From positions 56,110,001-56,174,000 of the forward strand of contig OZ024746.1 of assembly GCA_964016885.1 (NCBI GenBank): a stretch of DNA of 64,000 bases, given 5' to 3'. The DNA comes from Eledone cirrhosa. Taxonomy: Eukaryota. The position numbers and the translations under genes were made by a program. Position 1 is the first letter of the stretch; each line of letters starts with the position of its first letter. The notes under the pieces are model-generated. The model ran no database searches, was not told the DNA's origin, and was given only the letters and a program-made list of their open reading frames with translations. Positions 15,001-62,975 of the stretch are shown piece by piece.

Positions 15001-17995
15001 TGATAACATGTTCAAAACACACTACAACACCCAGTTGATAAGGTGTACAAATCATACTATAACACCCAGTTGATAAGGTGTACAAATCATACTATAACAC
15101 CAAGTTGATAAGGTGTACAAATCATACTATAACACCCAGTTGATAAGGTGTACAAATCATACTATAACACCCAGTTGATAAGGTGTACAAATCACACTAC
15201 AACACCTCGTTGATAACGTTGACAAAACACACTACAACACACAGTTGATAACGTGTACAAAACCCACTACAACAATCCAGTTGATAACGTGTACAAAATA
15301 CACTACAATACCCAGTTGATAACGTGTACAAATCACACAACAATACCTGGTTCATAACGTGTACAAAACACACTACAACTTACAGTTGATAACGTGTACA
15401 AATCACGCTAAAAAACCCAGTTGATAACGTGCACAAAACACACTACAGCACCTAGTTGATAACTTACAAAACACACTACAATACAGTTGATGACGTGTGC
15501 CAAACACACTGCAACACCCAGTTGATAACGTGTACAAAATACACTACAACACATAGTTGATAACGTGTACAAAACACACTACAACACCCAGTTGATAACG
15601 TGTAAAAACCACACTACAACGCCTAGTTGATAACGTGTACAAAACCCACTACACCACCCAGTTGATAACGTGTACAAATCGCACAACAACACCCATTTGA
15701 TAACGTGTATAAAACACACTACAACACACAGTTGATAACGTGTACAAATCACACTAAAAAACCCAGTTGATAACGTGCACAAAACACCCCACAACACCCA
15801 GTTGATAACGTGTACAAAACGCGCTACAACAACCAGTTGATAACGTTTACAAAACACACTACAACACACTTGATGACGTGTACAAAACACACAACAACAC
15901 CCAGTTGATAACGTGTAATAAACACACTACAACACACAGTTGATTACGTGTACAAAACACATAAGAATACCTAGTTGATAACGCGTACAAAACACGCTAC
16001 AACACCCAGTTGATAACGTGTACAAATTACACTACAACACCCAGTTGATTACGTGTAATAAACACACTACAAACACAGTTGATAACGTGTACAAAACACA
16101 TAACAATACCTAGTTGATAACGTGTACAAAACACACTACAGCACCCAGTTGATAATGTGTACACATTACACTACAACACCCAGTTGATTACGTGTACAAA
16201 ACCCATAACAATACCCAGTTGATTACGTGTACAAAACACACTACGATACCCAGTTGATAACGTGAACAAATCACACTTCAAAACTGAGTTGATAACGTGT
16301 ATAAAACACACTACAACACTCAGTTGATAACGTTTACAAAACACACTACAACACCCAGTTGATACCATCTACATAACACACTACAACACAGTTGATAACA
16401 TTTACGAAACACACTACAACACCTAGTTGATAACGTACAAAACACACTACAATACAGTTGATGACGTTTACCAAACACACTACAACACCCAGTTGATAAC
16501 GTGTACAAAACACACTGCAACACCCAGTTGATAACGTCTACAAAACACACTGCAACACCCAGTTGATAACGTGTACAAAACACACTACAACACCCAGTTG
16601 ATAACGTCTACAAAACACACTACAACACCCAGTTGATAACGTGTAGAAAACACACTACAATACCCAGTTGATAACGTCTATAAAACACACTACAACACCC
16701 AGTTGATAACGTGTACAAAACACACTACAACACCCAGTTGATAACGTGCACAAATCACACTACGAAACCCATTTGATAACGTGTACAAAACACACTACAA
16801 CACCCAGTTGATAACATGTTTAAAACACACTACAACACCCATTTGATAAGGTGTACACATCATACTACAACACCCAGGTGATAATGTGTACAAACCACAC
16901 TATAACACCCAGTTGATAAGGTGTACAAAACACACTACAACACCTCGTTGATAACGTTGACAAAACACACTACAACACACAGTTGATAACGTGTACAAAA
17001 CCCACTACAACAATCCAGTTGATAACGTGTACAAAATACACTACGATACCCAGTTGATAACGTCTACAAAACACACTACAACACCCAGTTGATAACGTGC
17101 AAAAAACTCACTACAAGATCCAGTTGATAACGTGTACAAACCACACTACAAGCCCCAGTTGATAACGTGTACAAAACACACTACAACACCCAGTTGATAA
17201 CGTGGACAAACACACTACAATAGCCATTTGATAACGTACAAAACACACTACAACACCCAGGTGATAACGTGTAGTAAACACACTACAACACAGTTAATAA
17301 CGTGCACAAAACACACTACAAGACCCAGTTGTTAACGTGTACAAACCACACTACCACCCCCAGTTGATAACGTCTACAAAACACACTACAACACCCAGTT
17401 GATAACGTGTATAATTCACACTACAACAGCCAGTTGATAACGTGTACAAAACACACTACAATACACAGTTATTAACGTACACCAAACACACTACAACTCC
17501 CAGTTGATAACGTGTACAAAACACGCTACAACAACCAGTTGATAACGCGTACAAGACACACTACAACACACTTGATGACGTGTACAAAACACACTACAAC
17601 AACCAGTTGATAACGTGTACAAACCACACTACCACCCCCAGTTGATAACGTGTACAAAACCCACTACAACACCCAGTTGATAACGTGGACATACACACTA
17701 CAAAAGCCATTTGATAACGTACAAAACACACTACAACACCCAGTTGATAACTTGTACAAAACACACTACAATACCCAGTTGTTAACGTGTACAAAACACA
17801 CTACAACACCCAGTTGATAACGTGTACAGAAACACTACAACACACAGTTGCAAACATAGACACGCACAGTACAACTCCCAGACGCTTACACAGACAAACA
17901 CACGTTAGACCAACCACGTGCTAACAAAGACAAACACATACTACAACATACAGTTACTAACATAGACATACACATATTACAACCAGTTGCTCATA
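1..17995. repeat. 35-bp tandem satellite, consensus CAGTTGATAACGTGTACAAAACACACTACAACACC, roughly 500 copies; degenerates over ~17830-17995; continues beyond the left edge
   Basis: 35-nt period read directly (TACAA..CCC at 16621, 16656, 16691); no spacers; + strand A/C-rich; period is not a multiple of 3. Confidence 0.97.
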
Positions 17996-18136: not shown

Positions 18137-18189
18137 TGAATTTTTTAACATAAGGAACTGTTTCTTTTTTTTATTCATTATTTACATTA

Positions 18190-18228
<39 letters not shown>

Positions 18229-18231
<3 letters not shown>

Positions 18232-18350
18232 CGAAGGAAATGTGGTAATGAACCAGGTGGACCATAACGCACCAAAGTATTCAATACTTAGGGTAGTAGA
18301 GTGGGTAATAGGAACGAGTAGGACCCCGAAGGCTGAGCTCAAGCCGTTTC

Positions 18351-18354
<4 letters not shown>
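18229..18354 (-). mobile_element. Short 3'-terminal fragment of PLE-type family J, between (TA)n and (GA)n
   Basis: Near-identical to 26448-26572; carries the HHR 3' half GAAA-CGGCT..AGCC-TC-GGGGTC. Confidence 0.7.
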
Positions 18355-19539: not shown

Positions 19540-21663
19540 TTAAACCAACCACTTCATTTCGCTTCTCTTGGATCGGTTGTTTAATTGTGGCCCTAGGCGT
19601 TTGATCCAAAGTGCTTCCTTGATACGTAACGTGCCGACGTTTCTTTCTGTCGCTAGAATTGTGACAATGGGCCTTCCGTCTTTGTTTCCGCATTTGTCTA
19701 TGTGTTTCCGGAAAGACGAGGCCCTGGTTTTAGTGTGTCCCTTGATCCGGATGTGCAACGACCGGATTATGCTACCTATATGGTATTGGTTGCACTTGTT
19801 ACATTCTATTTATACAAGACGTATGTGCGTAGGCAACAGTTCGCATGGCGCATCGGGCAGTCTCTGAGGGAGCATGCGTCAGTTGATTTCCCGGGTTTTC
19901 TGGAGAGGCATCTTCGCAGGGAGGGGCCCAAGTGGGCCAGGTGGACGTCGAGGCCCTCCCTCCGTATAGCCTTGCGGATAGCGTTGGTGGTATTCTCGCC
20001 CAGGTGTGGCATTTTAAGGAAGCACTTGCCTTGGGTGTCTCTCTGTCTCTTGTGTCTGGTGTTTCCTACTCTGTCTGTGAGCGAGGTAGGGTACCCGTTC
20101 GTCTCCAGCACCTCGAGGAATCGCTTGGTATGAGTGACACCACTCGCGGAATCACTGCATCTGTTTTTGATTCGCGCGATCTCGTTCGTGATGTATCCTG
20201 TTTTGACACTGTTAGGGAGGGCGGACTTTCAGTGGACGAACAGGTCCCTGCAGGCTGCCTTTCGGTGGAAATTGCAGTGGATCCCTCCCTGTTCCGTGAT
20301 GTTGATTCGGAAGTCGCGGAGGGCAAGTGACCCGTCGTCGTTGGTGTGTTCAACACTGAAGTCAATGTTCTCATCCGTGTTGTTGAACGTCTCATATATT
20401 CTGTTCGCCATGTCTTGGGAAGATATGTGGATGAGGATATCGTCCACGTACCTTGAGAAAAAGGCTACGGCGTTGGGGTGGCAGGCGTTGAGTGCCTTGC
20501 GCTCGAGGTAGTCCATGTAAGAGATCGCTAGCACACCTGATAGGCTTGATCCCATGGGCAATCCCGAGGTTTGTTGGTATATTTGGTCAAGGAATCCGAA
20601 GTAGGTGTTGTCGACGACGATGGATAGGAGTTGGTGGATGTCAGTGGTGGTGAGCACGAAGCAGTGTAGGTTGGTGGATTGGACGCATTCCATTAGTATA
20701 TTGACGGCCGGGAGTGCCGGGACCGAGTTGTAGAGAGCGACTATATCAAGGCTGAAGGCATATCTGTTATGCTTTCTGGTGTCGGGATCCATTTGATGCA
20801 GGCGCTTCAACACCTCCTCGGGGCTGTTAACGTGTCCCGGCAAGGTGTCTAAGATGGTTTTGAGTATTCTGGCTAGGAGCCATGAAATTTTGTAGAGTGG
20901 TCCTTCCACGCTCGATACAATGAGCCTGATCTTCAGGTCGGGTCCCTCTTTGTGTGTTTTAACGAGGTGGTAGAAGGCGGGCAGTCTGCTGTTCCTCGTG
21001 AGGAGGTTGTATCTCAACTACTTCGGGAGCTTGCGCCGGTCGCAGATGTTGGTCCAGGCGGCGTTGATGTGCTCTTCTATCTGCGCGGGAGTGATTCCCG
21101 TGACCCTGGAGTAGAGGTTGTCATCGTCAAGGTGTTGGATGGCCAGGGTGTTGTAGGCCTCTCTGCTGATGACGCAGAATTATTTTCCCTTGTCGGAGGG
21201 GAGGTAGATGAGGTTCTTCGATTTTAGGTTGGAGAGAGTAGTGAGTTGAGATTTGGTGAGGTTGGGAGTGTGTGTGTGTGAAGTATATCCGAGATGGAGT
21301 GTTTTAGCCTGATGAGTTTAGTGTCGAGTTCGTGGTTGGGGGTGGGGTGTGGAGTTGGTGGTCAGGGTGGTAAGTGTGGAACTTGGGGTCGGTTGCGTGG
21401 GCGCTGTTATTTTCTGTGGCGCTGTTGATGGCGGTCACCCATTTAAGTTGGTAAGCGGCTCGACAAAAGTTGGCCTCGATGTTGAGTTTGAGTATGTCGT
21501 CGAGTCGTTGTGAGACAATGAACTTGGGTCCGAGGTGTAGGAGTTTCAGCTCGTCGCTCGTGAGAGTGCCGGTTAGGTCGGTGACCAGGTGCGTCGCATC
21601 GTTGAGGTGTGGCTCTGTGTTGGTGGATGCGGCGGTAGCGGTCGTTAAGTTGTTGTTTTCCAC
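19540..21663 (-). pseudogene. Frameshifted PLE reverse transcriptase + GIY-YIG endonuclease ORF (element A)
   Basis: ORF 20229-21017: FYHLVKTHK, SLDIVALY, GLPMGSSLS, SRYVDD; C-terminal VLYK..ECNKC..HIGS..LHIRIKGH..IKEALWI..PQLN across frameshifts. Confidence 0.9.
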
Positions 21664-26340: not shown

Positions 26341-26963
<623 letters not shown>

Positions 26964-27085
26964 TTATATATATATATATATATATAGTAGGCAATTGTAG
27001 CAAATATGAAAAAATAGGTCATTCTTCTTACATGTTTCTTTAAATGAAACAAAAACATATTAACACACACACCCACACACACACG

Positions 27086-30861: not shown

Positions 30862-32021
30862 TATATGAAATATAAGAATCAAAGAACTGTTCAAAACATT
30901 ATTGTGCTTACAGCTGTTTCCTCCAAACCGAGGTTTGGATTCTTCGGAGCAATTTATTAATGCATGGACAGTTATATGACCTCCTTTTCAGCCGAGAGAC
31001 ATACCGATACATATTCAAACATTGATACATATTCAAACATTGTGGGTCAACATTCATTATATAATTTAGAGTGGCAGTACACACTTCGAGATTACATTTA
31101 TATTAAGAGGTACAATCAAAAATCAAAAATACAGGTTAAAATACAACATGAAGATAGGCGGTTATATAGTGCAAATGTTATATGTGTGGCACGCATGTGC
31201 GTCTTGTTTATATAGTGTGGCAGAGAGATATGTGTGGTAGAGGCACTTAGGTAGGTAAACAAGAGTGTTAGGTTGGTAGATCTGGTGGCAAATTCTTTAT
31301 ATGATTGATATAGTCTGTGTGTGGAGAAATGTTATAAGCATTAAAAATAGTGCAAGCATTAAAAGTATTTTGTCAAACATTAAAAGTGGATTGTCAAACG
31401 CTCAATATCGGATTGTCGTGGATTATGTGAGGGGCATATAATCGAAAAATACACTCCCCTGTCCATGAAAATGCCGAAGTACATGAAATACTTGACATCC
31501 CTTCGCTGTGCATCTCCAATACTTTTAACACTTTTAATGCTTGCACTATTTTTAATGCTTATAACATTTCTCCACACACAGACTATATCAATCATATAAA
31601 GAATTTGCCACCAGATCTACCAACCTAACACTCTAGTTTACCTACCTAAGTGCCTCTACCACACATATCTCTCTGCCACACTATATAAACAAGACGCACA
31701 TGCGTGCCACACATATAACATTTGCACTATATAACCGCCTATCTTCATGTTGTATTTAACCTGTATTTTTTATTTTTTATTGTACCTCTTAATATAAATG
31801 TAATCTCGAAGTGTGTAGTGCCACTCTAAATTCTGTAATGAATGTTGACCCACAATGTTTGAATATGTATCAATGTTTGAATATGTATCGGTATGTCTCT
31901 CGGCTGAAAAGGAGGTCATATAACTGTCCATGCATTAATAAATTGCTCCGAAGAATCCAAACCTCGGTTTGGAGGAAACAGCTGTAAGCACAATAATGTT
32001 TTGAACAGTTCTTTGATTCTT

Positions 32022-32034
<13 letters not shown>
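30862..32034. mobile_element. Fold-back PLE 3' end: ~505-bp arms (30862-31369 / 31518-32034) around a ~150-bp spacer
   Basis: Arms near-identical in reverse complement; spacer encodes RGLCEGHIIEKYTP, resembling a GIY-YIG C-terminus; one HHR fold per arm. Confidence 0.85.
31944..31990 (+). ncRNA. HHR fold with CCGAAGA core (mirror copy at 30905-30951, minus)
   Basis: TGCT-CCGAAGA-A-TCCAAAC[CTCG]GTTTGGA-G-GAAA-CAGCTG-TA-AGCA. Confidence 0.65.
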
Positions 32035-35513: not shown

Positions 35514-35518
<5 letters not shown>

Positions 35519-35957
35519 AAATATTTCGTATCTCCAAAGAAATACAGTTTCAGGAAGCCGTAGATGTCCAGCAGAAGCCAGGGGGACAACCGTCTATGCA
35601 TTTCAGGCTTAACTGGCCTTCGTCAGGACGGTCCCTACCACCGCTTGCGACTGGTGGACTAGAAGACAGCAGAGAATATATACTTTTCTCGTCTGTGTAA
35701 TTGAGGTGATTAATCTCTTTTGCATATGAAGCTGCATAAGTTGGCTCGACTTATAATAAAAAAGAAATACGATTCGCTTCAAGCATAGCTTTATACAATA
35801 TGTGTAAATATTTCGTATCTCCAAAGAAATACAGTTTTAGGGAGCCGTAGCTATGCAAACACCGGGGGCCTAACACCCTCTGGTGATGTTCAGCAGAAGA
35901 AAGGGGGACAACCGTCTATGGATTTCACGCTTAACTGGCCTTCGTCAGGACGGTCCA
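35514..35957 (-). mobile_element. Retrozyme-like tandem repeat I: 322-bp HHR-to-HHR unit, ~1.4 copies
   Basis: Direct repeat starting at 35514 and 35801 (35-bp indel); one HHR per unit; no credible ORF. Confidence 0.75.
35589..35632 (-). ncRNA. Canonical minimal type-I HHR (second copy 35911-35954 has two substitutions)
   Basis: ACCGTC-CTGACGA-AGGC..GCCT-GAAA-TGCA-TA-GACGGT. Confidence 0.88.
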
Positions 35958-39320: not shown

Positions 39321-40602
39321 ACGGATATGTCTCCATAAACAATAACTCTCTAATTGAGTGGGCCATGGTTTCCAAATCCTTATTTGAAAGACTTCACCAG
39401 GTAATACTATTAAATTAGACATGACCTGGGACAATACTGGCCTAAACCTATCAAAGTAATTAGCACATTAATTAATGTTTGGTTTTTTCACCAATCGTTG
39501 ACCCATTTATATTTATGGATTGCATAGAAAATAGAGGACATATATGATTAAAGGATAGTCTGCCAATTCAGTGTTATTGTAATGGCAAAACATACTCTAA
39601 TGTCGTACAGACAGCAATGATACGCATTGCAGGTTGTATTGCCTGATGGTGTGAGGTGTGATTTGTTATGTGGCGACAGAAATACTACTGTCCTTAGAAA
39701 ATTATTTTCATTAATCTCAACCAAAGATTCTGCTGCTACAGAAGTCTAGGAGTATTAAACTCTGTGTCAGTAATCATTGACCGGAAACCAGTGTAGCGTG
39801 ACGCAGAAGACTTAGAAGGTTAAATCGCTATAGAGGCTTACAAATTGCAAAAAAATAAAATATAAAAGGTTATTAATAGTTATAAATATCATAAAGTTTA
39901 CACAATTCATAAGATTAACAGAACTTATAAAATTTGTTAAATTTACAACAATTGTAAAAATTATGTTTGAGTTATGCATTCGGTAAATTAAGAAAAATGA
40001 ATTAGGAAGAATAGGATAAGAGAAAATTGTTGAGAAATATAAATATTAAAGTGTTGACAGTGTATATTTACAATGATCGTTAATTTTAAATTCTAATGTC
40101 AATGATTTTTGAAAGTAAAATATTGAATGGTTAAGTGTAATCAAATCATTTCGTACATATATTCGTTTGTGTTATGAACGAAAATGCGGGGCAGTGCAAC
40201 CTTGACTCGCATGACAGTTCTCCTTATGTCCACAAAATCCAACGAAAATAAGTTACTATTGACCGATTTTATTTGTATAAGTAAGTAATGGGTGTGAAAA
40301 TTAATTAACTGATAAATAAATTGCAAGAACTCAAATTATAGAACATATTGAATAGAAGGGTCATTAAATATATTAGATTGTCGGTTATGTGATACTATTT
40401 GAATATCTAACACCATTCCTATCCCAGACACGGGATACCACATAACGATGGGTGATTCGGATAAGGTCATGGGCTTTAATTTATTGCATCATCGTTTATT
40501 AAAAGTAATCAACAATGCAACGTTTATATATATATAGTGTGATTTCATGTGTGGGCAACTGGTGAAAATGTATATATGTATATATAAATTTATATATATA
40601 TA

Positions 40603-40649
<47 letters not shown>

Positions 40650-41108
40650 TAAACGGAATAGAAAATGCTGACAAATTGTTCACAGTTGAAAAATGGTTTA
40701 ATTAGGAATAAAAGAGTATTAGTGATTGTATGGGTTAGTATTCAGTTGTGGTTTGAAGTTTTTAAGTTTTTACCGGTTGCGCATTTCTAAATGCTTTTCA
40801 AAAATAATTTTGAGATAGAGTGTCCGTGCTGTTTGCTCTGATCTGATTAGTTTGGGGAATTCTACCTGTTTTTATGTTAAAAAAGTGGCTCCAATTTGCA
40901 AAAATTCTTATGGTCAAAACAATTTTGATTGGTCGGTAGAGGTCATGTGAATGTAAAAAATTGATTTTCCGCCAAGACTGTTTTTATGTTAAAAAAGTGG
41001 CTCCAGCAAAAATTCTTGTGGTCAAAACAATTTTGATTGGTCGGTAGAGGTCATGTGAATAAAAAATTGGTTTTGCGCCAAGATTGAGAAATGACTCTTT
41101 CACAACAA

Positions 41109-41170
<62 letters not shown>

Positions 41171-41239
41171 TAGTAGTAGTAAGGTGTTCGATGTTGTGAT
41201 AATGGTTAGCAGCGATGAGTGTCAAATGGCTATTAAGAT

Positions 41240-41299
<60 letters not shown>

Positions 41300-41719: not shown

Positions 41720-43540
41720 TTGGCATGTGTTAAGATGTTTTTCATTGACTTGGATTGTCTTTTGCTCTTTATGATATCGTGTGTTCGTAGAATTTGGTTC
41801 ATTCTATGGTCCTTTTTCAATACAGGGATGTTCTGGAGGATGGTGTCAAAGGCCTCATTGTTGAGGGGGTTGTCTGTGGAGATGTATGGAAGAGCTTTTA
41901 GTTTTGGTTGATTTACTTTAGGGTGTCTAAGGTCCTGGGTACTGAGTTTTAGGGCACGTTGGATTCCATTGTCAATTAGTGATACAGGGTAGTCCCTGCC
42001 TATGAGTGTGTCCTTTAGTTCTTGTAACCGTAAGTAGCAGAATGTTTTTATTGGAGACTATAGTACAGATTCTCTTGGCTAAGTTGTAGGGAATATTAAT
42101 TTTAACGTGTCTAGGGTGGCAAGAGTTGAAGGGGAGATATTGCTTGGAGTCTGTGGGCTTGTAGTATATGTCTGTTTCTATTTTTTTGTTATGGATCTTA
42201 ATGAGGATGTCGAGGAAGGGGAGTTGTTGATGGCTGTATTCCATCGTGAAGTTAATATTCGTGTTGAGCCCATTTATAAAGGTGTGAAATTCTTTAAGTT
42301 TTTCGATGTTTTCGTGCCAAAGGATGAAGCAGTCATCTAGATATCGCTTCCAGTTCCTTTCAATGTGTAAGTTGAGGGTGTTTCCAAATTTGTTTAGGAC
42401 TTTAGTGTAGAGGGTGATTTACAGGTATCCCATGACTAGGTTGGCATAAGTGGGGGCTGTTTTCGTTCCCATAGCGGTCCCAGATTTCTGCCTGTAGGGT
42501 TTGTTATTGAAAACGAAGTAATTGTTCTCCAAGATAAATTTGAGTCCCTCTATCACGAATTCTTTTTTGATGCGTTGTGGGAGTTCATTGTGGAAATTAT
42601 CCAGCCAGAATTGGATAGCTTCTATTCCTAGTTTGTGGGGGATGTTGGAGTATAGGTTGACTACATCGAACGTTACTAGTAGGGTTTGTTCAGAAAGTGG
42701 CATATTAAGGAGGTGATTGAGCATATCTAGGTCGTCCCTTATATAGCTTTTGATGTGCTTGAGGAAGGGTGTGAGAAGGGTATCAATGAAGTTGCTAAGA
42801 CGGTGCGTTTCGCAAGCGGGACCTGCTATTATAGGTCTTAATTTGAGATCATTGGGTGAGGGGACATTGGTGACTATGTCTGTGGCTTCCTTGCATGCCT
42901 TACTTATTGATTCGCTTTTATGTACTTTAGGGATACCGTAGAAAAGGCTGGATTTACTTGTGAAATCTGTGATGAAGCTGAATTCCTTGTTAGTGAGTCC
43001 TTCTTTGTATTGTTTGATTAGAGTTTTTAGGTTTCTCATAATTTTCTGTTGATTGTAGTTTTCAGCCTTTTCGTAGTATGTTTCGTTTTCCAAAGTGGAG
43101 AGCGTTAAGTTGATAGAGAATTCTGTCTCCATTAGGACTACTGTACTCCCTTTATCAGCCTCTTTAATTGTAATGGTTCTGTCGGTTTTTAATCTATTTA
43201 ATTCTTCCCATTCTTTCTTGTTGAGGTTTGGCTTGTGTTTTTGTCTGTGCAAGTGTTGGTAAGGGAAGTTTGTGATGTGTTCACAGAATTCGTCCAGGAT
43301 TTTATTTCTACCTTTTGAAGGGGTGTAATTGCTTCTATTTCTGGCTAATGATTCATCCTCATTGTACTGGTCGAATAGTTGTTCACTAAGTCGTTACTTT
43401 CTACAGAAGTCTGTGATGTCTTCCTTCATTGCATAGTAGTTAGGACGTAGTGGGGTCGGTGTGAATTTAAGACCTTTGGAGAGTAAGTTGATAAGGTTCG
43501 GTGTTGGTTCTGCACTAGTAAGACTAATTATTTTTATTAC
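41720..43540 (-). pseudogene. Disrupted PLE reverse transcriptase ORF (element B)
   Basis: IKEADKGST, FYGIPKVHK, LRPIIAG, TFDVVNLY, GTAMGTKTAP, KRYLDD (~42335), LPFLDI, YYKPT, SCHP. Confidence 0.92.
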
Positions 43541-43742
43541 TATCGGTTTCTCCTCCCTGTCTTGTGTTATTTTGATTGCCTGTATCTGTGTGCTGTGTCT
43601 AAAAAATGGTTGGGGTAGAGGGGTTGTCTGCTAATGTTAAGTGGTCTCCTACACACACACACACACACTTATCTTAATAGCCATTTGACACACATCGCTG
43701 CTAACCATTATCACAACATCGAATACCTTACTACTACTACTA

Positions 43743-43807
<65 letters not shown>

Positions 43808-44126
43808 TATTTGTTGTGAAAGAGTAATTTCTCAATATTGGCGCAAAACCAATTTTTTATTCACATGACCTCTACCGACCAATCAAAATTGTTTTGACCA
43901 CCAGCATTTTTGCTGGAGCCACTTTTTTAACATAAAAACAGTCTTGGTGCAAAATCAATTTTTTACATTCACATGACCTCTACCGACCAATCAAAATTGT
44001 TTTGACCACAAGAAATTTTGCAACACCAAAGTAACGCTGGAGCCACTTTTTTAACATAAAAACAGGTAGAATTCCCCAAACTAATCAGATCAGAGCAAAC
44101 AGCACGGACACTCTATCTCAAAATTA

Positions 44127-44163
44127 TTTTTGAAAAGCATTTAGAAATGCGCAACCGGTAAAA
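44127..44163 (+). ncRNA. Variant HHR-like fold in the PLE B terminal repeat (mirror at ~40768-40804, minus)
   Basis: TTT-TTGAAAA-GCATT[TAGA]AATGC-GCAA-CCGG-TA-AAA; U3-A8 type core; GCAA replaces GAAA in both copies. Confidence 0.45.
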
Positions 44164-44320
44164 ACTTAAAAACTTAAAACCACAACTGAATACTAACCCA
44201 TACAATCACTAATACTCTTTTATTCCTAATTAAACCATTTTTCAACTGTGAACAATTTGTCAGCATTTTCTATTCCGTTTACCAATATATAATAACTTGT
44301 GTGTTACACCTCTATTCTTT

Positions 44321-44376
<56 letters not shown>

Positions 44377-46015: not shown

Positions 46016-46030
46016 CGTATATATATATAT

Positions 46031-46937
46031 AAACGGAAAATATGAAACGAAGTTTCATTTCTCACTCTTAGTACGTCTGTTACTTAAATATAAGTATGTA
46101 TACGTACATACATATATGTATACAGACTACAGTAGTATGTATATGTATATGCATACATAAAAAAAAAAAAATATGTACGTATGGATTCACCGACCATTTA
46201 TTATAATGCTCGGTGTGTTTGTAAACAAACATCCCGAATTAAGCCGTACAGTGCTTAGCAACTATCGTTGCTCATTTGTTCAACACTGACAAAGGAACGC
46301 TGTACTAGTTTCAAGCGTATTAGCTATCGCCAGCAACATATACCTTCCTGCCAGATGATTGAACGTCTGAAAGTATATATTTTCCTTATGCATATTAACG
46401 GCTGAGCAGCCTAATTGGCATATCGAGTGAGTTAATCGCCCGGGCGCACCGAAAATGATAAACGGGAAAAATGAAACGAAATTTCATTTCTGACTCTTAG
46501 TAAGGCTGTTACTTAAATATAAGTATGTATACGTACATACATATATGTATATAGACGTACTGTAGTTGTATATATATATACATACATGCACACATATATA
46601 TATATGTACGTATGGATTCACCGAACATTTATTATAATGCTCGGTGTGTTTGTAAACAAACATCCCGAATTAAGCCGTACAGTGTCTAGCAACTATCGTT
46701 GCTCATTTGTTCAACACTGACAAAGGAACGCTGTACTAGTTTCAAGCTTATTAGCTATCGTCAGCAACGTATACCTTCCTGCCAGATGATTGAACGTCTG
46801 AAAGTATATACTTTCCTTATACATATTAACGGCTGAGCACCTAATTTGCATATCGAGTGAGTTAATCGGCCGGGCGCACCGAAAACGATAAACGGAAAAA
46901 ATGAAACGGAATTTCATTTCTCACTCTTAGTACGGCT
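46031..46937 (-). mobile_element. Retrozyme-like tandem repeat G: 431-bp unit, ~2.1 copies
   Basis: Unit starts at ~46031, ~46460 and ~46891; one HHR per unit; dispersed partial copy at 60500-60735. Confidence 0.8.
46728..46770 (-). ncRNA. Minimal type-I HHR with canonical core (copies 46297-46339 CTGGCGA, 60667-60709 CTGTCGA)
   Basis: ACGTTG-CTGACGA-T-AGCT[AATA]AGCT-T-GAAA-CTAG-TA-CAGCGT. Confidence 0.82.
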
Positions 46938-47794
46938 CATTATAAATACACGTATGCGTTTCACTGGGTTTGCGAAAGTGTCTGTAGGTGCGTATTCACA
47001 TTTTACTTAATGTCTATGTAATATATCAGTGCTAGAAATTGCAATATCTACCTACCTCATCAGTGATAATTTCCTAGAAATTAGCTTAGACCTAGGCACA
47101 CGCAACTACAGACCTTTTTACACATCCAGTGATTACCGCTTAATATAACCAGCTATTATCATCTTAATTAGTGGGTTCCAATGTCGTTATAAATTTAGTT
47201 TATAACATAATACTGTTATAAATTATACAGACTACAAATATAATTATATATGTGTGTTTGTGTGCGTAAAATATTGTGAAAAACCCTGTCATCATTGAGC
47301 TAGTAGTGCAATGATCAATTGGCTTCCATCCATCAATGCCTAATCATTTCTATATCAGGTACTACAGGGGTCTAATTTAAGATGGGATTTGAAGGAGATA
47401 GTACCTCTATTTCTAGTTATTCCAATGACTTCTGCAGAGTCTTCACCACCCTATCTCTTTGTGCTGAAATATGAATAGATGAAAGAGACACCGAGATGTC
47501 TTTTAAATGAAAGCGTGGACTGAGTTAGGTGTAGGAAGAAAAAGAAGTGAATTTGAAGGGAGGAGGAGAAGGAGGGTGACTAACTTAATTAGGCGGACCG
47601 TCTATTTGTGCAGGCTTTCACTCACAATTCACTACACTTCGCTACATTTCACCACAGCTCACTGCATTTTGTGAAACTTTCTAATTGCTATTAGCTTTTA
47701 TACGCATCATTATGAACATATACAAATGCACGTATATAACATAAATATACAAATGCAAGTTTATATGTATATATATATATATATATATACATTC

Positions 47795-48053: not shown

Positions 48054-48362
<309 letters not shown>

Positions 48363-48364
48363 GT

Positions 48365-48546
48365 ATAATAGGAAAAGAGTGAGGTCCCCGACGGTTAACC
48401 CCCGGCCGTTTCTACAGGTAGATCAGAACTAAGTTCGCATGTAGCTGTCGAAACGGCTGGAGCTCAGTCGTCGGGGACCTGATTATGTTCCTATTACACA
48501 CACTACTACCGTAAGTATAGGGTATATTGGTGCATAATGGTCCACA
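48365..48546. mobile_element. Diverged family J fold-back fragment
   Basis: GGTCCCCGACGG..CCGTTTC followed by the inverse GAAACGG..CGTCGGGGACC. Confidence 0.65.
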
Positions 48547-48654
48547 TGTTATATATGTTTGTTATATATCATATATATATACATATACATATATATACTA
48601 CACACACACATATATATATATATACATATTCATCAATAGTACATTAATACATAC

Positions 48655-48706
<52 letters not shown>

Positions 48707-48795: not shown

Positions 48796-48853
48796 GCATA
48801 TATATATATACATATATACATATATATACATATATATATATACATATATATAC

Positions 48854-48979
<126 letters not shown>

Positions 48980-48980
48980 T

Positions 48981-49016
<36 letters not shown>

Positions 49017-49029
49017 AATATATAATATA

Positions 49030-49762
49030 TAAAAACAAAAGATGGTTAAAGGAGTTCCATGTATTTTATTATGCGCATTTCAAAAACAAACATCATCATG
49101 CAATAATATTTGTGTTTTCATCAGATAAAACAGGAGGACATGATATGAAGGCTAAAAAACACTTGTGGATAGTGCAGTTTTAAATGAACATATGAGAAGT
49201 AGTTTTAGATTGATGTGTGATATTGGGAAAAATATTTTATTTAGAGGGGGGGGGAGTATGAAAAAAAGAGGAGGAGATGAGAGTGAAGGTGAGATGAGAG
49301 GGAGGAATATAATGAGGAAGGATGAGATAGGAGGAGAGATGAGATGGGTGATAGAGAGAGAGAGATAGTTTTTATAACTGAGAAAGTCTATGTAAAACAA
49401 TATATCTTTCTCAGTTATAAAAACTATCTCTCTCTCTCTATCACCCATCTCTCCTCCTATCTCATCCTTCCTCATTATATTCCTCCCTCCCATCTCACCT
49501 TCACTCTCATCTCCTCCTTTTTTTTCATACTCCCCCCCCCCTCTAAATAAAATATTTTCCCCAATATCACACATCAATCTAAAACTACTTCTCATATGTT
49601 GATTTAAAACTGCACTATCCACGAGTGTTTTTTAGCCTTCATATCATGTCCTCCTGTTTTATCTGATGAAAACACAAATATTATTGCATGATGATGTTTG
49701 TTTTTGAAATGCGCATAATAAAATACATGGAACTCCTTTAACCATCTTTTGTTCTTTTATAT
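49030..49762. mobile_element. Near-perfect 730-bp fold-back (arms 49030-49386 / 49406-49762, 19-bp spacer) carrying HHRs
   Basis: Mirror ORFs 49165+ and 49152-; adjoins a long (TA)n tract. Confidence 0.9.
49657..49723 (+). ncRNA. Canonical type-I HHR (mirror copy 49064-49130, minus)
   Basis: TTTTAT-CTGATGA-~16-bp stem II-GAAA-TGCGCA-TA-ATAAAA. Confidence 0.85.
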
Positions 49763-49943
49763 TATGTATACTCCAGTCCTACAAACTGTAGAGTGCTTCT
49801 TATCCGATATCTGCATTGCTTTATTGTACTACAATAAAACTCACCTCCTACATATATATATATGTATATGTATATATATGTTTATATATATATATATATA
49901 TATGATATTAAATAAATGGAAACTATATTTATAAAACCATATT

Positions 49944-50009
49944 TATTTCATTATATATATTTCAGGGATATCATATTAACAATATGTTATGCCTTCTTCA
50001 GACAAAATA
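49944..50009 (-). ncRNA. Canonical type-I HHR in a 260-bp insert with inverted ends (49901-50160)
   Basis: TATTTTGT-CTGAAGA-AGG..CATATT/AATATG..CCT-GAAA-TATATA-TA-ATGAAATA; related 3' fragment at ~29730-29800. Confidence 0.8.
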
Positions 50010-50245
50010 CAATATAAACAGTCTTATAAATAAATAGATACGACATACCTTTCAATCGACTTGCATTTGGGAAGTTGATTTGGCAGTTTTATAAATGGTT
50101 TTATAAATGGTTTTATAAATATAGTTTTATAAATATAGTTTCCATTTATTTAATATCATAAATATACTCCAAATACTTGTTGAGTGCTTTTATATCAGTT
50201 GTAAATATTTACTCGCTGTTAACCCAACAATTTAAATATAACTTT

Positions 50246-50314
<69 letters not shown>

Positions 50315-50316
<2 letters not shown>

Positions 50317-50449
50317 ACAAAGATATTGTGGTAAGATACCAAGTGGACCATTACGCCCCAATGCCCAATGTACTCGATACTTACGGTAGTGGAGTTTGTA
50401 ATAGGAAAAGAGTCAGCTCCCCGACGGCTGAGCTCCGGCAGTTTCGACA
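50315..50449 (-). mobile_element. Diverged family J 3' fragment (another at 60741-60805)
   Basis: GTGGACCAT..GGTAGT..CCCCGACGGCTGAGCTC..GTTTCGAC. Confidence 0.65.
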
Positions 50450-50794
50450 TCATATGTGTATATAGTTAAGGAAACATGCCCGCACACATATACACATACA
50501 CCCATACACACCCACAAACACACACAAAAAAACGCATTATATGTATGGAAAAGAATGAAATGATATTTCATTTCTCATACTTACATTTATATATATATTT
50601 ACATTTGCTTATATATATATATATAAAGAATTAGTATATCAAGTAATATATATATACACAGATGCATACTTATGCTAGCAAATATATAGGTTTTGTCTTA
50701 GTAACTTTGTGGTTCAATGCATGGGGTTGCAGAACAATAATATGAGAGACGTAAAATAAGAAAATTATAAAATTAACTTACTTACTAAAATTTC

Positions 50795-51159: not shown

Positions 51160-51200
<41 letters not shown>

Positions 51201-51204
<4 letters not shown>

Positions 51205-52658
51205 GAAGAGAGAAGGAACATTTAGATATAATTAGTAATAAAATGTATCATACCTAAACTGCTCCTAGATTCCTCGACTACGTAGTTTCGTGGCATAAAC
51301 AAAAACAGTACATCATAAAGATATAGAGCCCTTGCGTGGTCTGCCGACTTATCAAGACGATACCTCATTTTACTAGCTTCAAGAACGCGTCTACACGACG
51401 TAAGAAAGAATCCCAAAAGGCGGAGGGGGAGATAGTCACGCGATATAACGGTCGAGAAACAGAGCTAAGCCTCTTATAACCCCGAAGAAAATACCACGGA
51501 GGCGGAGGGGGTATTTATAACGAAGCCGTAGAAGAGGTGGTAAAGGAGACGAGAAGTATGATTAATGGCAGCTTTCCAGCAGTCACCACACTTCAAAGAT
51601 TACTCGACCAGAGGGAGTTATGAACAATATATTTAGAAACACACAGATACATGCGGACACACACATATACATGAATGAATCCACATCCAACCGTGAGTTA
51701 ATGGTGCCAACCTTACCGATGTTGCTCAATGAATGACTGGGACAGACCAATCCGGTTGAACCAGACTGAACCAGTATCAGAGTTAAAAATACATTATGAA
51801 GAGAGAAGGAACATTTAGATATAATTAGTAATAAAATGTATCATAGTTTAGGTATGATACATTTTATTACTAATTATATCTAAATGTTCCTTCTCTCTTC
51901 ATAATGTATTTTTAACTCTGATACTGGTTAAGTCTGGTTCAACCGGATTGGTCTGTCCCAGTCATTCATTGAGCAACATCGGTAAGGTTGGCACCATTAA
52001 CTCACGCTTGGATGTGGATGCATTCATGTATATGTGTGTGTCCGCATGTGTCTGTGTGTTTCTAAATATATTGTTCATAACTCCCTCTGGTCGAGTAATC
52101 TTTGAAGTGTGGTGACTGCTGGAAAGCTGCCATTACTCATACTTCTCCCCTCCTTTACCACCTCTTCTACGGCTTCGATATAAATACCCCCTCCGCCTCC
52201 GTGGTATTTTCTTCGGGGTTATAAGAGGCTTAGCTCTGTTTCTCGACCGTTATATCGCGTGACTATCTCCCCCTCCGCCTTTTGGGATACTTTCTTACGT
52301 CGTGTAGACGCGTTCTTGAAGATAGTAAAATGAGGTATCGTCTTGATAAGTCGGCAGACCACGCAAGGGATCTATATCTTTATGATGTACTGTTTTTGTT
52401 TATGCCACGAAACTACGTAGTCGAGGAATCTAGGAGCAGTTTAGGTATGATACATTTTATTACTAATTATATCTAAATGTTCCTTCTCTCTTCATAATGT
52501 ATTTTTAACTCTGATACTGGTACAGTCTGGTTCAACCGGATTGGTCTGTCCCAGTCATTCATTGAGCAACATCGGTAAGGTTGGCACCATTAACTCACGG
52601 TTGGATGTGGATGCATTCATGTATATGTGTGTGTCCGCATGTATCTGTGTGTTTCTAA

Positions 52659-53829: not shown

Positions 53830-55440
53830 GGCTGTAATACAGGAAAGTTTTGTGCAATTTAGGTTTACAAGCCGAAATTGCCTCAGATTTTTTGTTTAAG
53901 ATGTGGTCTGTGGCGTAGAATATTTACAGGGCCTCAGCGGCGCAGAGATCACATGGTATTTTATTTCCGTTATACGATCTAGCCCTCGCTAGAATCTCCC
54001 TGTGTAACTTATATTGGGTGTGGTTGTCTTTAGACTCCAGATATAAGCTGAAAGTGACGTCATATTCCTTCTTAGAGGGTAAGGAAAAGAATGGGTATCC
54101 ATGTAAAGACGCTGCTTAAATCTATTGGCGGTTAACCCTGCGGGACGTGGGTGTTTCAACCTTACATTTGTAGACAATGTTGCTAGAAAGGCATTTCCCG
54201 GATAGGAGGCAATCAACCCGATTCCTACAATTACAGCTATTACTAACTACAGGGTTGCACATGTTCCTACGGCTAGGTAGTTTAGATAAATTTGAAGCTG
54301 TAATGTTATGTGCAAGGTTAGGAGTCGTAGAGTAAGAAATTTTAATAGTATTTCTATTAACAAGTTTACTATATTTATGTGTAGAGGGAAAATGCTTCGT
54401 AATAAGGGAAAGAAAGATCTTAGCTAATGGTGTGGCCACCTCCATATTATATGGTGGTTTATACCAACAAATGCGACCGGATCTATTTCTTCTAGGTCTA
54501 TTTTCGTACTCTGTATATGCTACCTTATCGACAAATCCACTCCGAGCAAGAGCTTCATTGTAATAAGTGGAATGGTCGTTGAAAATATGCTCGTTAGTAG
54601 ATAGACGGGGAAGCCTCAAGGAAACGTTTCTTACCAGGTTCTTGGTTATGCTGGCAGGATGGTTGGAATGCTTACTTATGTAATTAAGCGTATCATTCGG
54701 CTTTCTATACGGGTAATACAACCCATTCAATAAATTGAGGGTAACGTCGAGGTAATTAACGACCGAGAGATTGGCCTCAACCTGTATACAGAGGTTGAAG
54801 CCTTTAAAGAAGGCTGTGAGTTCTTTTCTGAACCTGTCGCAAGCACGATGTCCGCACTTAGTCATTGTCAAAAGACCATCGTCACGGTACAAACCACCGC
54901 CCGCGTTGGGGAATTCATCCTTGATAGAGAAAAGAAGGAAAAGGCCGATAAGATCAGTAACCTCCGCAGAATCGCTGGCGCCCATACTCACGTCGAATGG
55001 AGTACCATTGGATTTTTTAATCCAAATAGTGTCGTCGAAATTAATCACCGACTTATGGGCATTGAGGATGACATCAACTTCGAAATCCTTAACCACTGTG
55101 AGTGTTTTAGCGAAATTGATAGCTCTAAGGAGAAGTGGTAAAGTGATGGAGGAGTAGTAATTGTTGATGTCGAATTGGATAAAACGGCAATGTTCCTTGT
55201 TACATATGCCGTTGAACCAATCAATCACCGCGAAAGAATTGTTCCACAGTACAAGAGGGGCCAAACCTCTAATTTCAGGTATAATTCTATCAAGAATCGT
55301 TTTACTAAGTCTACCTAAATCGAACTTCGTAGGGTTAATAAGCCGAATAGAGGGGTTGTTCGTAAAATTGGATTTGTGATCCTTCAGGGTAAAGTGGGGA
55401 GAAATAGGGTCCAGAGGCTCGGTCCGGTCCAGGATGTTGA
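53830..55440 (-). pseudogene. PLE RT (380-aa ORF 54122-55264) with frameshifted GIY-YIG domain
   Basis: TLKDHK..RLINP, FIQFDINNYYSSI, DVSMGASDSAE, GLYRDD, YLDVTL, SNHP, CNC..C..C, NIVYKC. Confidence 0.92.
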
Positions 55441-55573
55441 GATCAGATGTGATTTTAAACCCAGCATCCTTGATTTCATTGATGATATAAATGTAAGTAT
55501 GAGAAATGAGATTTCATTTCATTCTTTTCCATATTTGTATATATAGATGCGTGTGTTTGTTTGTGTGTGTGTA

Positions 55574-55617
<44 letters not shown>

Positions 55618-56345
55618 TCCTTAAATGTATACACATATGTATTAATGCATATTAGAATATAGATGTAGGGGAGTAGTCATATATTTGTGTGTGCGTGTAT
55701 GTGTGTTGATAAGTGCATATATGTACGTACATATATGTTTATATGCAAAACCATAAGTTGCTCACTAGCCTGAGGTGCATGTTTCCCTATATAAATCCAT
55801 TTTTCCTTCAGAATAAACATAATCTACCACCACACATTATTTGGACTTACCTGAATATTCATAAATGTTATTGTTAATCTCACATAAACAACGACGACGA
55901 CTACAAAAGTTAACAACATCAACAACGTCATTAAAACAAGGCGAACGACAAACAGAACAAAAATAACAACACCAATGCTATCAACAACGAACCTGCCTAT
56001 ATCATTAATGATATAGAGTAATATTGCTAGTGTTGTTGATGATATTGCTGTTATTACTGTAGCAGATGCTGATGATGCTGAAATGTTTGTTGATCATTTT
56101 ATTATGTAAATATTATATATATATCTGTTTGAATCTGTTGATAAACCATGAAACATTAAAATAACAAAGCGTGGACGTAACTAAACATACTTATTTATAT
56201 TACATATCCTGTCTCTTCATCTGCAGGTATATTATCTTGTCCTACTCTCTATGTCTCTCTCTGTTTCTCGCTCCCTCCTTTCTGTCTCTCTATCTCTCTC
56301 TCTCTCTTTCCCTCTGTCACATACATACCCACAATCACATATGCA

Positions 56346-58540: not shown

Positions 58541-59340
<800 letters not shown>

Positions 59341-59344
<4 letters not shown>

Positions 59345-60219
59345 CAAATAACGAAACGAAATTAAATTTCGTTTCGTTTGTAACTCACTTTTGTATGACT
59401 GACGCTTAAACAATTAAGTTAAAAATGTACATCCACATATGTATACTGAAATACTAGTATGCATATGAATACACACACGTATACATATGTAGATGTACCG
59501 AGTTTTTCACTGGTCACTTTACTGTGAGTGTCCAGCTATTCTGTATGTAAACACACAGACAAACCGGTTTTTAGAGTCATACTGGTTTTTGAGGAAACAC
59601 CTTTCCTCTATTCTCCAGAAAGCCAGGCAAGGAATATTGAACTAGTTTCGATGTTGTTACATCTCATCAGCAATATTTACCTATCTTCCGGCCTCTCTAG
59701 AGAATCGTAAAAGCACATATCGTTATATGCTTTTTCTATGAAAATTAGTAGTGGGCAGACTAATTTGCATAGAGTGTGAGTACGTACCGGTTCAACGGAG
59801 ACGATAAAAACAAATAACGAAACGAAATTAAATTTCGTTTCGTTTGTAACTCACTTTTGTATGACTGACGCTTAAACAATTAAGTTAAAAATGTACATCC
59901 ACATATGTATACTGAAATACTAGTATGCATATGAATACACACACGTATACATATGTAGATGTACCGAGTTTTTCACTGGTCACTTTACTGTGAGTGTCCA
60001 GCTATTCTGTATGTAAACACACAGACAAACCGGTTTTTAGAGTCATACTGGTTTTTGAGGAAACACCTTTCCTCTATTCTCCAGAAAGCCAGGCAAGGAA
60101 TATTGAACTAGTTTCGATGTTGTTACATCTCATCAGCAATATTTACCTAAATATTTACTCTAAAAACCGGTTTGTCTGTGTGTTTACATACAGAATAGCT
60201 GGACACTCACAGTAAAGTG
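59341..60219 (-). mobile_element. Retrozyme-like tandem repeat H: 466-bp unit, ~1.7 apparently identical copies, plus a ~63-bp inverted tail (60157-60219)
   Basis: Offset 466 (59341/59807; ORF echoes 59528/59994); one HHR per unit. Confidence 0.85.
59633..59677 (-). ncRNA. Fully canonical minimal type-I HHR (identical copy 60099-60143)
   Basis: AATATTG-CTGATGA-GATGT[AACA]ACATC-GAAA-CTAG-TT-CAATATT. Confidence 0.92.
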
Positions 60220-61439
60220 AGAACTAGTCTGTTAGACTGGATTTAAAAAAAAAACCTTCTTAAATAACTTTAATAACATATATGCTAAAACTTTAATAAT
60301 TAGTGCTTCAGTTTTTCTAAAATTATATTTAGGTGTATAAATTTACAATATATTAAAAGTAAAGATTGCAAGCAAAAATCTACATTTTAGAACAAAAGTC
60401 TAATTTCATCTACAAAATCTACATACCGCGGCTTCGATCCGGCAAAGGAATAGACATTATTTAAGATAATTAATAAATACGAATGTCTTAATATATGTAT
60501 ATATATCTATATATATATACATACATGCACACATATATATATATATGTACGTATGGATTCACCGAACATTTATTATAATGCTCGGTGTGTTTGTAAACAA
60601 ACATCCCGTATTAAGCCGTAGTGTCTAGCAACAATCGTTGCTCGTTTGTTCAACACTGACAAAAGAACGCTGTACTAGTTTCAAGCTTATTAGCTATCGA
60701 CAGCAACGTATACCTTCCTGCCAGATTGTTGAACGTATATACTTACTCTAAGTATCGAGTACGCTGGTGCGTTATGCTCCACCTGGTATCTCACTACACT
60801 CTGTTATATATATATATATATATATAGCCATTAACATTCTACTTACTTAAGGTGAGACTTTATATCCCATTGGTACTCATTGTAGTGTGTTAATATGAAT
60901 ATCCCGTCGAAGCAAAACATTGTTTTTTTGTGGAAAAGTGATATCATTGTACACAACTATATTATGTTGAACAATGAAATAAAAATGTAGAAACTTTAGT
61001 AGGTAGCCCTTCTATTGGAAACTATTAAATCTGTGAAATATATCTTTCTTCCTAGTTATCGAATAAGCTGTTCTACAAAACTAGAATCTATGTAGGAGAA
61101 AGCTTTAGGTTAAATAGCCTGAAAGTTTGAGACACGCTTATCTACCTGAAAGTATAAGTGCTTACTTGTTTATTTAAAATGGAAAAAGTTTAACAAATAT
61201 GTCGGTTAGAAATTCATGTTCCATTAAATAGATTCAAAAATGTTCCACTATAAGAGCTATTGATATATTACCTGATTCAGACTAATATTAAATTATCAAA
61301 CTCAAGACCTCTTCAATTACAATTACTCCGTATATCTCCTACGGTAAAATCAACCGAAATTTTCATCATGTCTTCTCATATTATATGATAAACGACAATA
61401 TACTAAACCACATTCACTTAGTGAGGTAAAACACGTCAG

Positions 61440-62591: not shown

Positions 62592-62975
62592 TTAAGTCAA
62601 ATAGGTAAAATTTGGCTTCGTTTATTATAAATTATAGATATACCGCTATTTTGTTGGACAGCCATCATTGTCTGTGACGATTTCAGGCTGTCCGAATTGG
62701 TATGGTAGAGACGGGTACACATGTTGTTTAAGTGTTTTTAACTCAGTCAATACTCCTATATGTCCAGCTCCTGGTTGCGTTGATATTCCAGGAGCTGGAC
62801 ATATCAGAGTATTAACAGAGTAAAACACACTTAAACAACATGTGTACCCGTCTCTACCACACCAATTCGGATTGCCTGAAGACGTCAAAGCCAATGATGG
62901 TTGTCACCGAAATATATATAGTGGTATATCTATAATTTATAATAAACGAAGCCAAATTTTACCTATTTGACTTAA
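62592..62975. mobile_element. Older diverged fold-back (arms 62592-62774 / 62788-62975) with a decayed HHR at 62871-62925 (+)
   Basis: ATTGC-CTGAAGA..AGCCA/TGGTT..GAAA-TATATA-TA-GTGGT; 13-bp spacer. Confidence 0.75.

Follow-up and report, generated by a model that had tools for sequence, protein, structure and literature searches.

Three families of hammerhead ribozyme repeats (G, H, and I) carry, upstream of the ribozyme and on the same strand, a common module made up of an octamer-like word and a TATA-like word. They lie in a window of 64 kb (the whole stretch of DNA that was analysed), which is AT-rich animal DNA (36% GC) with many (TA)n runs and repeats and, to judge from its SINEs, probably from an octopus. 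In this window, TATGCAAA followed 30-32 nt later by AAAGYATATA has three matches, each on the hammerhead strand, upstream of the unit copies G1, H1, and I1. The module is real and well placed, and, judging from its letters, it is probably a promoter of the immunoglobulin VH type rather than of the snRNA type. More specifically, we see about an even chance that it is an internal polymerase II promoter, which would start transcription 16-28 nt before the ribozyme core and would be copied along with each monomer.

The hammerhead repeat families and their arrays

A pattern search located, on the minus strand, type I hammerheads whose short stem III is palindromic, at 46764 (G1), 59670 (H1), 60136 (H2), and 35626 (I1), and damaged copies on the same strand at 46333 (G2), 60703 (G3), and 35948 (I2). 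The type I hammerhead motif is present in all seven unit copies of the three families (Table 1). It is intact in G1, H1, H2, and I1; the stem III palindrome is broken in I2, and the core is mutated in G2 and G3. The tandem units are arranged head-to-tail, with lengths of 431 nt (G), 466 nt (H), and 322 nt (I), and no open reading frame of at least 150 aa overlaps them. At the gathering score, Rfam returns nothing for the G, H, and I hammerheads; among the 150 of 317 weaker matches that were listed, Hammerhead_HH9 falls on H1 and H2 at a sub-threshold 33-34 bits. In G1, the stem I pair 46767:46731 varies on both sides among the contigs of run X1. Such a two-sided change is as expected for a working ribozyme, and lends indirect support, at the level of sequence, to an active fold.

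Table 1. Positions in the window of the arrays, hammerheads, module words, and predicted transcription starts of families G, H, and I.
Feature	Position	Strand	Remarks
Family G array	46029..46957	-	2.1 copies of 431-nt unit; 3' end at T-run beside (TA)n
G1 full motif	46862-46841	-	ACTCACTCGATATGCAAATTAG
G1 ACTCAC word	46857..46862	-	predicted pairing with upstream GAGTGAG (~46926-46920)
G1 extended octamer word	46841..46852	-	TATGCAAATTAG; octamer 46851-46844; 5' arm of predicted hairpin, 3' arm ~46818-46829
G1 TATA-like word	46805..46814	-	AAAGTATATA; within palindrome 46800-46815
G1 predicted transcription start	46780	-	A of CAG, 30 nt after TATA start
Hammerhead G1, type I, extended stem I	46716..46780	-	core CTGACGA from 46764; predicted cut between 46734 and 46733
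G copy 2 (G2), decayed	46432-46411 (octamer); 46333 (core)	-	octamer ATGCCAAT; core CTGG
Partial G copy (G3)	60504..60745	-	AAGTATATA kept; octamer lost (5'-truncated); core mutated (CTGT)
Family H array	59338..60149	-	1.74 copies of 466-nt unit; second hammerhead at 60136
H full motif	59760..59781	-	ACTCACACTCTATGCAAATTAG = ACTCAC-ACTC-TATGCAAATTAG; octamer part is 5' arm of hairpin 59772-59735
H TATA-like word	59724..59733	-	AAAGCATATA; in hairpin 59735-59710
H predicted transcription start	59698	-	A of YAG, 30-31 nt after TATA start
Hammerhead H1, type I, extended stem I	59612..59698	-	core from 59670; predicted cut between 59640 and 59639
Inverted 64-nt piece of H body	60157..60220	+	at 5' junction of H array
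Family I array	35514..35956	-	about 1.4 copies of 322-nt unit; second hammerhead at 35948
I octamer variant	35718..35726	-	TATGCAAAA; without ACTCAC and without stable hairpin
I TATA-like word	35677..35686	-	AAAGTATATA
I predicted transcription start	35652	-	A of YAG, 30-31 nt after TATA start
Hammerhead I1, type I	35575..35652	-	core from 35626; predicted cut between 35595 and 35594

Family G is abundant and dispersed: 8,776 contigs of run X1 align to one unit, with a summed depth of 0.5-2.1 million in most covered bins (which is not a copy number), and the window holds two loci. G1 and G2 carry the same allele at 18 of the 20 sites that vary in the family, a rare one at 46694 among them, and they differ at 19 of 340 positions. 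This points to one template for both copies and later decay, so that the broken octamer of G2 is private decay. The H array contains a 346-nt duplicate with 0 differences, and its 3' end, too, lies at a T-run beside (TA)n. A microsatellite adjoins the 3' end in all four loci of the three families. Microsatellite ends and inverted 5' pieces have been described as marks of Penelope-like insertions (PMC8557442), and the inverted 64-nt piece of H would be such a Penelope-type mark. On these sequence features, G, H, and I class as non-LTR retrozymes in the sense of PMC7229834, and they resemble the metazoan representatives (PMC7229834; bioRxiv 10.64898/2026.07.22.740005) in being non-coding tandem units of a few hundred nt with low GC, in having many copies with one type I hammerhead and a short stem III per unit, and in having putative Penelope-like elements in the vicinity, together with candidate insertion marks of the Penelope type.

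The 5'-truncated first copies of H (60149) and I (35956) start 13 and 8 nt before the ribozyme core, which is 15-18 nt downstream of the predicted transcription starts; G3 and the G array start elsewhere. These truncation points fit either the copying of an uncut primary transcript or a reverse transcriptase that stalled at the long stem I.

Conservation of the octamer and TATA words

The original prediction had placed an octamer-like motif, followed by a TATA-like run within a small hairpin, upstream of the hammerhead in each family. The G motif was recovered exactly where it had been placed, as was the I variant, and the motif spacing is indeed identical in G and H; the H motif is present, although its range had been drawn one base too long. 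Likewise, the motif had been put 75-87 nt upstream of stem I, and ~73-85 nt were found. The TATA-like run follows the octamer by 33, 33, and 35 nt, in good agreement with that prediction, but the hairpin around it is strong in H only, being moderate in G and weak in I. When the G/H motif was searched with up to three mismatches, there were three matches in the window, the third being the decayed G2 copy, against a mean of 0.15 and a largest count of 2 in shuffled sequence. The joint pattern TATGCAAA-N30-36-AAAGYATATA has three matches in the window, all at hammerheads, and was found in 0 of 100 shuffles; it was drawn from these very sites, and so demonstrates specificity, not significance.

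The distance from octamer start to TATA start is 41 nt in G, 41 nt in H, and 43 nt in I, while that from the TATA word to the ribozyme core is 46, 59, and 56 nt, respectively, and that from octamer end to core is 79, 92, and 91 nt. The octamer-TATA distance is thus steady across the families, whereas the TATA-ribozyme distance drifts. The words themselves are not of equal quality, as the H TATA word reads CATATAA (a weaker TATA) and the I octamer is imperfect. The ACTCAC word is outside the conserved core of the module: it is missing in I, pairs with upstream GTGAG in the predicted folds of G and H, and is read as ACCCAC in 53% of the family-G contig depth of X1 (46860 A>G).

With respect to the rest of the unit, the families had been described as otherwise dissimilar. 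This is true of I against the other two and incorrect for G against H, whose bodies (motif block and ribozyme core left out) are identical at 199 of 289 columns (69%, z 11.7, 0 of 200 shuffles). Their motif block, at 74% identity, is hardly above the bodies. Since G and H are homologous over their whole length, the families amount to two independent lineages rather than three; by sequence, the G-H motif match appears to be largely shared ancestry, and the informative contrast is that of I with G and H. Here, the bodies align with z 1.7 and 1.6 (11 of 200 shuffles each) and the stretch from TATA to ribozyme with z -0.4 and 0.3, whereas the motif block reaches z 4.2 and 4.3 (0 of 200 shuffles each). 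Outside the ribozyme, it is only the octamer-TATA block that aligns above chance between I and G/H. Between I and G/H, then, the motif is better kept than the rest of its unit; between G and H it is barely so, and within family G not clearly so (see below).

The longest word common to G and H is TATGCAAATTAG, which at 12 nt exceeds any word common to their ribozymes; that common to G and I is AAAGTATATA (10 nt), and the longest three-way word is TATGCAAA (8 nt), a length of at least 8 being reached in 20 of 500 shuffles. Of the columns of the four-copy alignment, those of the two words are invariant in 17 of 22 cases, those between the words in 6 of 26, those upstream in 24 of 108, and all non-word columns together in 30 of 134.

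Proposed promoter type and competing readings

The claim that each unit carries its own promoter can be kept as the best single reading, since, apart from the ribozyme, no letters are better kept between I and G/H than those of the two words, and the spacing of these words is typical of a promoter. Immunoglobulin VH promoters have a TATA element near -30 and an octamer near -70 (PMC4260249). Relative to the predicted starts, the octamer of the module would lie at ~-72, and its spacing of 41-43 nt from the TATA word matches a VH-type octamer and TATA. The extended octamer word matches published Oct/POU probes, which have the sequence TATGCAAATTA (PMC1800861, PMC2760808). Counting from the TATA start, a YAG is found at 30-31 nt in all three families and in 9 of 166 background sites (a plain YA at this offset, in 65 of 166); this test was chosen after seeing the sequences and is therefore weak, and an 8-nt deletion variant shifts the CAG away from the expected offset. 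In predicted folds, RNA begun at these starts forms ribozyme stems I and II. T5-T6 runs occur within all three units, so that polymerase III would stop before a full monomer was made. Rfam, at the gathering score, has no tRNA family in the window, nor did any part of G, H, or I appear tRNA-like.

In the mechanism that we propose, the three families would be one lineage of non-LTR retrozymes, each unit of which has a compact polymerase II promoter with an octamer site for a POU factor (TATGCAAAW) lying 41-43 nt upstream of the TATA word, as in VH promoters. A host POU protein and TBP would bind the unit DNA, and polymerase II would start ~30 nt after the TATA word (at the positions in Table 1). 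As such a start precedes the ribozyme core by 16-28 nt, the first hammerhead could still fold, and it would cut off a capped leader of 47-59 nt. Polymerase II would continue to the next hammerhead, and a monomer would be released with the promoter sequence near its 3' end. Ligation would then circularise the monomer, and a Penelope-like reverse transcriptase would go round it more than once while copying it into a (TA)n target, in keeping with the published model of a life cycle that leads from circle to Penelope-like reverse transcriptase copying (PMC7229834). Every new tandem insertion would again have a promoter before its second hammerhead. The identical H duplicates and the alleles common to G1 and G2 are in line with this mechanism.

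At the RNA level, the octamer and TATA words are the 5' arms of two predicted hairpins, which, like the kinship of G and H, had been missed by the original prediction. The octamer hairpin has z -4.1 in H, -1.3 and -1.6 in G, and -0.1 in I; for the TATA hairpin, the values are z -4.8 (H, strong), -2.9 (G, moderate), and -1.2 (I, weak). In the main rival reading, which is a serious one, the words could instead be RNA-level elements, i.e., two adjacent hairpin 5' arms read by a protein, with transcription coming from elsewhere by read-through. That H folds both words into strong hairpins (the whole monomer has z -15 in H and -5.7 in G) would suit this explanation, as would the 3' arms of G, a G variant, and H, all of which match the octamer arm with about one mismatch at most, and the pairing of ACTCAC with upstream GTGAG in G and H, which has a counterpart at the same place in I (AAGC with GCTT). 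However, the octamer word is retained where its hairpin is weak (G) or absent (I), and neither the octamer arm nor the TATA arm showed a two-sided change. In the octamer hairpin, G, the G variant (46822, 46824), H, and I have different 3' arms, and the octamer arm is unchanged. Similarly, the TATA word persists after deletion of its partner arm, both in G3, which is without the 8 nt that make the 3' arm of the TATA hairpin, and in related variants, which appear as loose ends at 46797 in 18 X1 contigs. This one-sided change argues for constraint on the letters, beyond pairing, and as a sequence pattern it would fit either a DNA-binding or an RNA-binding reader of them. The retained letters read as a POU site and a TATA word, spaced as in a promoter, and we regard a purely RNA-level role as unlikely; the protein that would read such an element, be it a helper reverse transcriptase, a ligase, or a stabilising factor, is put forward with the same reserve. 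If the module is a polymerase II promoter, its letters would be under a second constraint, at the RNA level, from the hairpins.

The original prediction had labeled the promoter as snRNA-type, and this part of it was not supported. In mammalian U6 and 7SK promoters, the TATA element is at ~-31, the PSE at -66 to -46, and the octamer at ~-200 to -240 (PMC3958870). The octamer of the module, in contrast, is 41-43 nt before the TATA word, rather than ~200-240 nt before the start, and it is the slot for a PSE that varies, as the invariant columns between and within the words show. A looser version, in which the host PSE contains the word, or octamer, degenerate PSE, and TATA together drive polymerase III (U6-like), is improbable. 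It could appeal to newt satellite 2, which has an internal snRNA-type promoter (cited in PMC2220036), and to the taxon-specific PSEs of invertebrates (PMC9841428); no mollusc PSE sequence was found in the literature search, and no snRNA gene was found in the 64-kb window (Rfam, gathering score). A polymerase III transcript would end at the hairpin and T5-6 just upstream of the next promoter, and this too we hold to be improbable. The first T run (at least 4) after the ribozyme is indeed 32-44 nt before the next octamer in G and I, and the G and H arrays terminate at a T-run, but the lateness of that first run does not reach significance as a terminator sign (p 0.19, 0.14, 0.23) and H has an extra T5 mid-unit. 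Furthermore, a transcript ended at the T-run would be without promoter, yet the genomic copies are whole units in tandem.

Variation within family G bears on whether the module has any present function. In X1, 21 positions and one insertion site differ at the level of at least 10%, several with two alternative letters; 19 sites are counted after leaving out 46694 and 46821, which are private to the window copy. Such variants occupy 0 of 21 motif positions and 19 of 309 other positions covered (p 0.28), and with every variant listed from all four runs the numbers become 0 of 21 and 43 of 309 (p 0.048). The octamer word of G1 has no variant among those listed for the contigs of X1 and the other runs. 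As a pattern of sequence variation, this is consistent with constraint on the motif, and is no proof of it. Runs X4, X5, and X6 (three other organism codes) yielded 12, 9, and 10 short contigs of depth ~2-19, and one contig in each carries nearly the same divergent variant; they could be trace DNA of one source, so that they enter the 43 of 309 only and no cross-species conservation is counted.

The module might also be without present function, the words being leftovers of ancestry (e.g., from a Penelope pseudo-LTR) or chance survivors in AT-rich sequence that were noticed as familiar motifs. The homology of G and H throughout, the outcome of the within-family comparison at the 10% level, and the three-way 8-mer in 4% of shuffles would all agree with this, and retrozymes are reported to derive from Penelope-like pseudo-LTRs (bioRxiv 10.64898/2026.07.22.740005). 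Two further observations weigh against the promoter reading. In the hammerhead-like families J, K, and M, the 150 nt upstream contain no octamer-TATA module, and hence it is not general to hammerhead repeats even within the window. Among three ATGCAAAW sites unrelated to a hammerhead, one (55743) has a TATA-like word 39-45 nt later, and so the pairing of octamer and TATA is not rare in TA-rich DNA. Nevertheless, the two words, their order, their spacing, and their place relative to the ribozyme persist between I and G/H, the bodies of which no longer align, and the joint pattern is confined to hammerheads in the window; we therefore give little credence to a module without function.

It is scarcely credible that a short intron has its 3' end in the G/H motif, with GTGAG as donor, CTCAC as branch point, and TTAG as acceptor (length 84 nt in G1 and 95 nt in H). 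In its favour, a GTGAG word is present at 46924 and 59854, TTAG closes the motif, CTCAC stands 17-18 nt before it, and in Penelope an intron of 75 bp overlaps the internal promoter (PMC8557442). Against it, the donor word is absent in I and G2, there is no pyrimidine tract, the branch-point T is altered in 53% of the family-G depth, and the segment is skipped by 0 of the 4 joints listed for the 8,776 X1 contigs.

Known promoters of hammerhead repeats and neighbouring features

Internal promoters of hammerhead repeats are already known from newt, schistosome, and plant, and the octamer and TATA type was not found in the literature surveyed. The promoter of newt satellite 2, the subject of work by Coats, Zhang, and Epstein (1994), reportedly contains an octamer. 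Like the G, H, and I units, this satellite is a tandem repeat with a hammerhead and has an internal promoter used by polymerase II (cited in PMC2220036). It differs in that its promoter is of the snRNA type, whereas G, H, and I have a TATA word ~40 nt after the octamer and no conserved PSE-like block between them. The Sm-alpha repeats of schistosomes are also hammerhead repeats with their own internal promoter, but theirs is a tRNA-derived polymerase III promoter (PMC2220036, PMC2770079). In the plant LTR retrozyme NbRZ1, as in our model, the promoter is in the repeated part upstream of the hammerhead and is probably used by polymerase II, and the start site was hidden because the ribozyme removes the 5' leader (PMC12029980). 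NbRZ1 is, however, an LTR element with a type III hammerhead, and the available text of PMC12029980 describes no octamer or TATA. The VH promoter shares with the module an octamer near -70, a TATA element near -30, and the strand sense of the octamer (PMC4260249). It is a vertebrate protein-coding promoter of proven activity, while the module belongs to an invertebrate non-coding mobile repeat, is folded into predicted hairpins, and is known from sequence; the resemblance, taken by analogy, would be convergent.

Among the accounts of metazoan retrozymes, the main text of Cervera and de la Pena (2020; PMC7229834) uses "promoter" twice, both for T7, and its supplement may show such motifs. In the available text of Li, Clavereau, and Pollet (2026; bioRxiv 10.64898/2026.07.22.740005), the words "promoter", "octamer", "TATA", and "octopus" have 0 occurrences; that work derives animal retrozymes from Penelope pseudo-LTRs, which contain a start site and an internal promoter (PMC8557442). 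A literature search with partial coverage of subscription papers found no account of cephalopod retrozyme promoters or of an octamer and TATA module in invertebrate retrozymes. It is possible, though on balance doubtful, that G, H, and I represent a retrozyme lineage with a 50-nt POU-octamer and TATA promoter in its own RNA, folded into hairpins, that arose separately from the octamer-type promoter of the newt. In that case, the place and timing of ribozyme-circle production would depend on host POU factors, and portable octamer-TATA promoters would have been spread across the genome by the very many dispersed copies.

Animal retrozymes are reportedly transcribed heavily in most tissues (PMC7229834), and what drives this transcription is unstated in the literature surveyed, apart from newt and schistosome. 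The module yields a precise prediction as to which 21 bases, which polymerase, and a start within a few bases, in three families. If the promoter reading is true, it would explain how a promoter survives retrotransposition without LTRs, would link a very abundant repeat to POU transcription factors, and would provide a tiny invertebrate promoter. If it is false, the module would still be the sole non-ribozyme sequence kept across the diverged families, and a candidate signal for a helper enzyme.

Scans for octamer, TATA, and core gave 3 metagenome-contig and 2 viral-contig stretches, none of which has a hammerhead behind it, and scans for the G/H ribozyme gave 5 viral and 10 prokaryote stretches, none of these 15 having an octamer or forming stems I and II. 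Both sets were set aside as chance matches.

Several other hammerhead-like sequences with a palindromic stem III lie in the window. That of family J occurs twice, at 49070-49124 (minus strand) and 49663-49717 (plus strand), within a 1.1-kb inverted duplication; that of family K (49952-50001, minus strand) has a one-mismatch octamer at -65; and that of family M (62876-62925, plus strand) lies in a 384-nt palindrome. The hairpin and T-run at the 3' end of family G match a 37-nt piece (84%, E 1.5e-4) of another repeat, of 155 nt. Copies of this piece are at 55494-55530 (plus strand) and 50547-50583 (minus strand), one of which adjoins the 5' end of a reverse-transcriptase-like ORF (54122-55513). 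On sequence similarity, the piece is possibly a shared end signal, and it is the only exception to the lack of BLAST matches, within the window, between G, H, or I and the reverse-transcriptase-bearing elements. Downstream of the 155-nt repeat, at 55742-55800 (plus strand), TATGCAAAA is followed ~45 nt later by TATATAAA, with no hammerhead behind; this pair is either chance or a related promoter.

Reverse-transcriptase fragments are present on the minus strand at 20229-21017, 42419-43393, and 54122-55513 (RVT_1 with E 1.3e-11, 5e-4, and no hit, respectively). They carry what we take to be Penelope-like motifs, and are candidate helper elements. The segments 40571-41259 and 43651-44372 form an inverted repeat around the second of these fragments. 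A further repeat family with GC-rich hairpins (18179-18354, 26398-26974, 48359-48702, 50230-50449, and 60744-60826) is always beside (TA)n and often inverted; one copy is the 5' flank of G3, and no ribozyme was identified in this family. A satellite at 18-17850 comprises 513 copies of a 35-nt unit. Long inverted duplications are found at 26538-26716, 30862-32033, 48844-49960, 51196-52502, and 62592-62975, and may be of the kind described for Penelope-type insertions or may be assembly artefacts.
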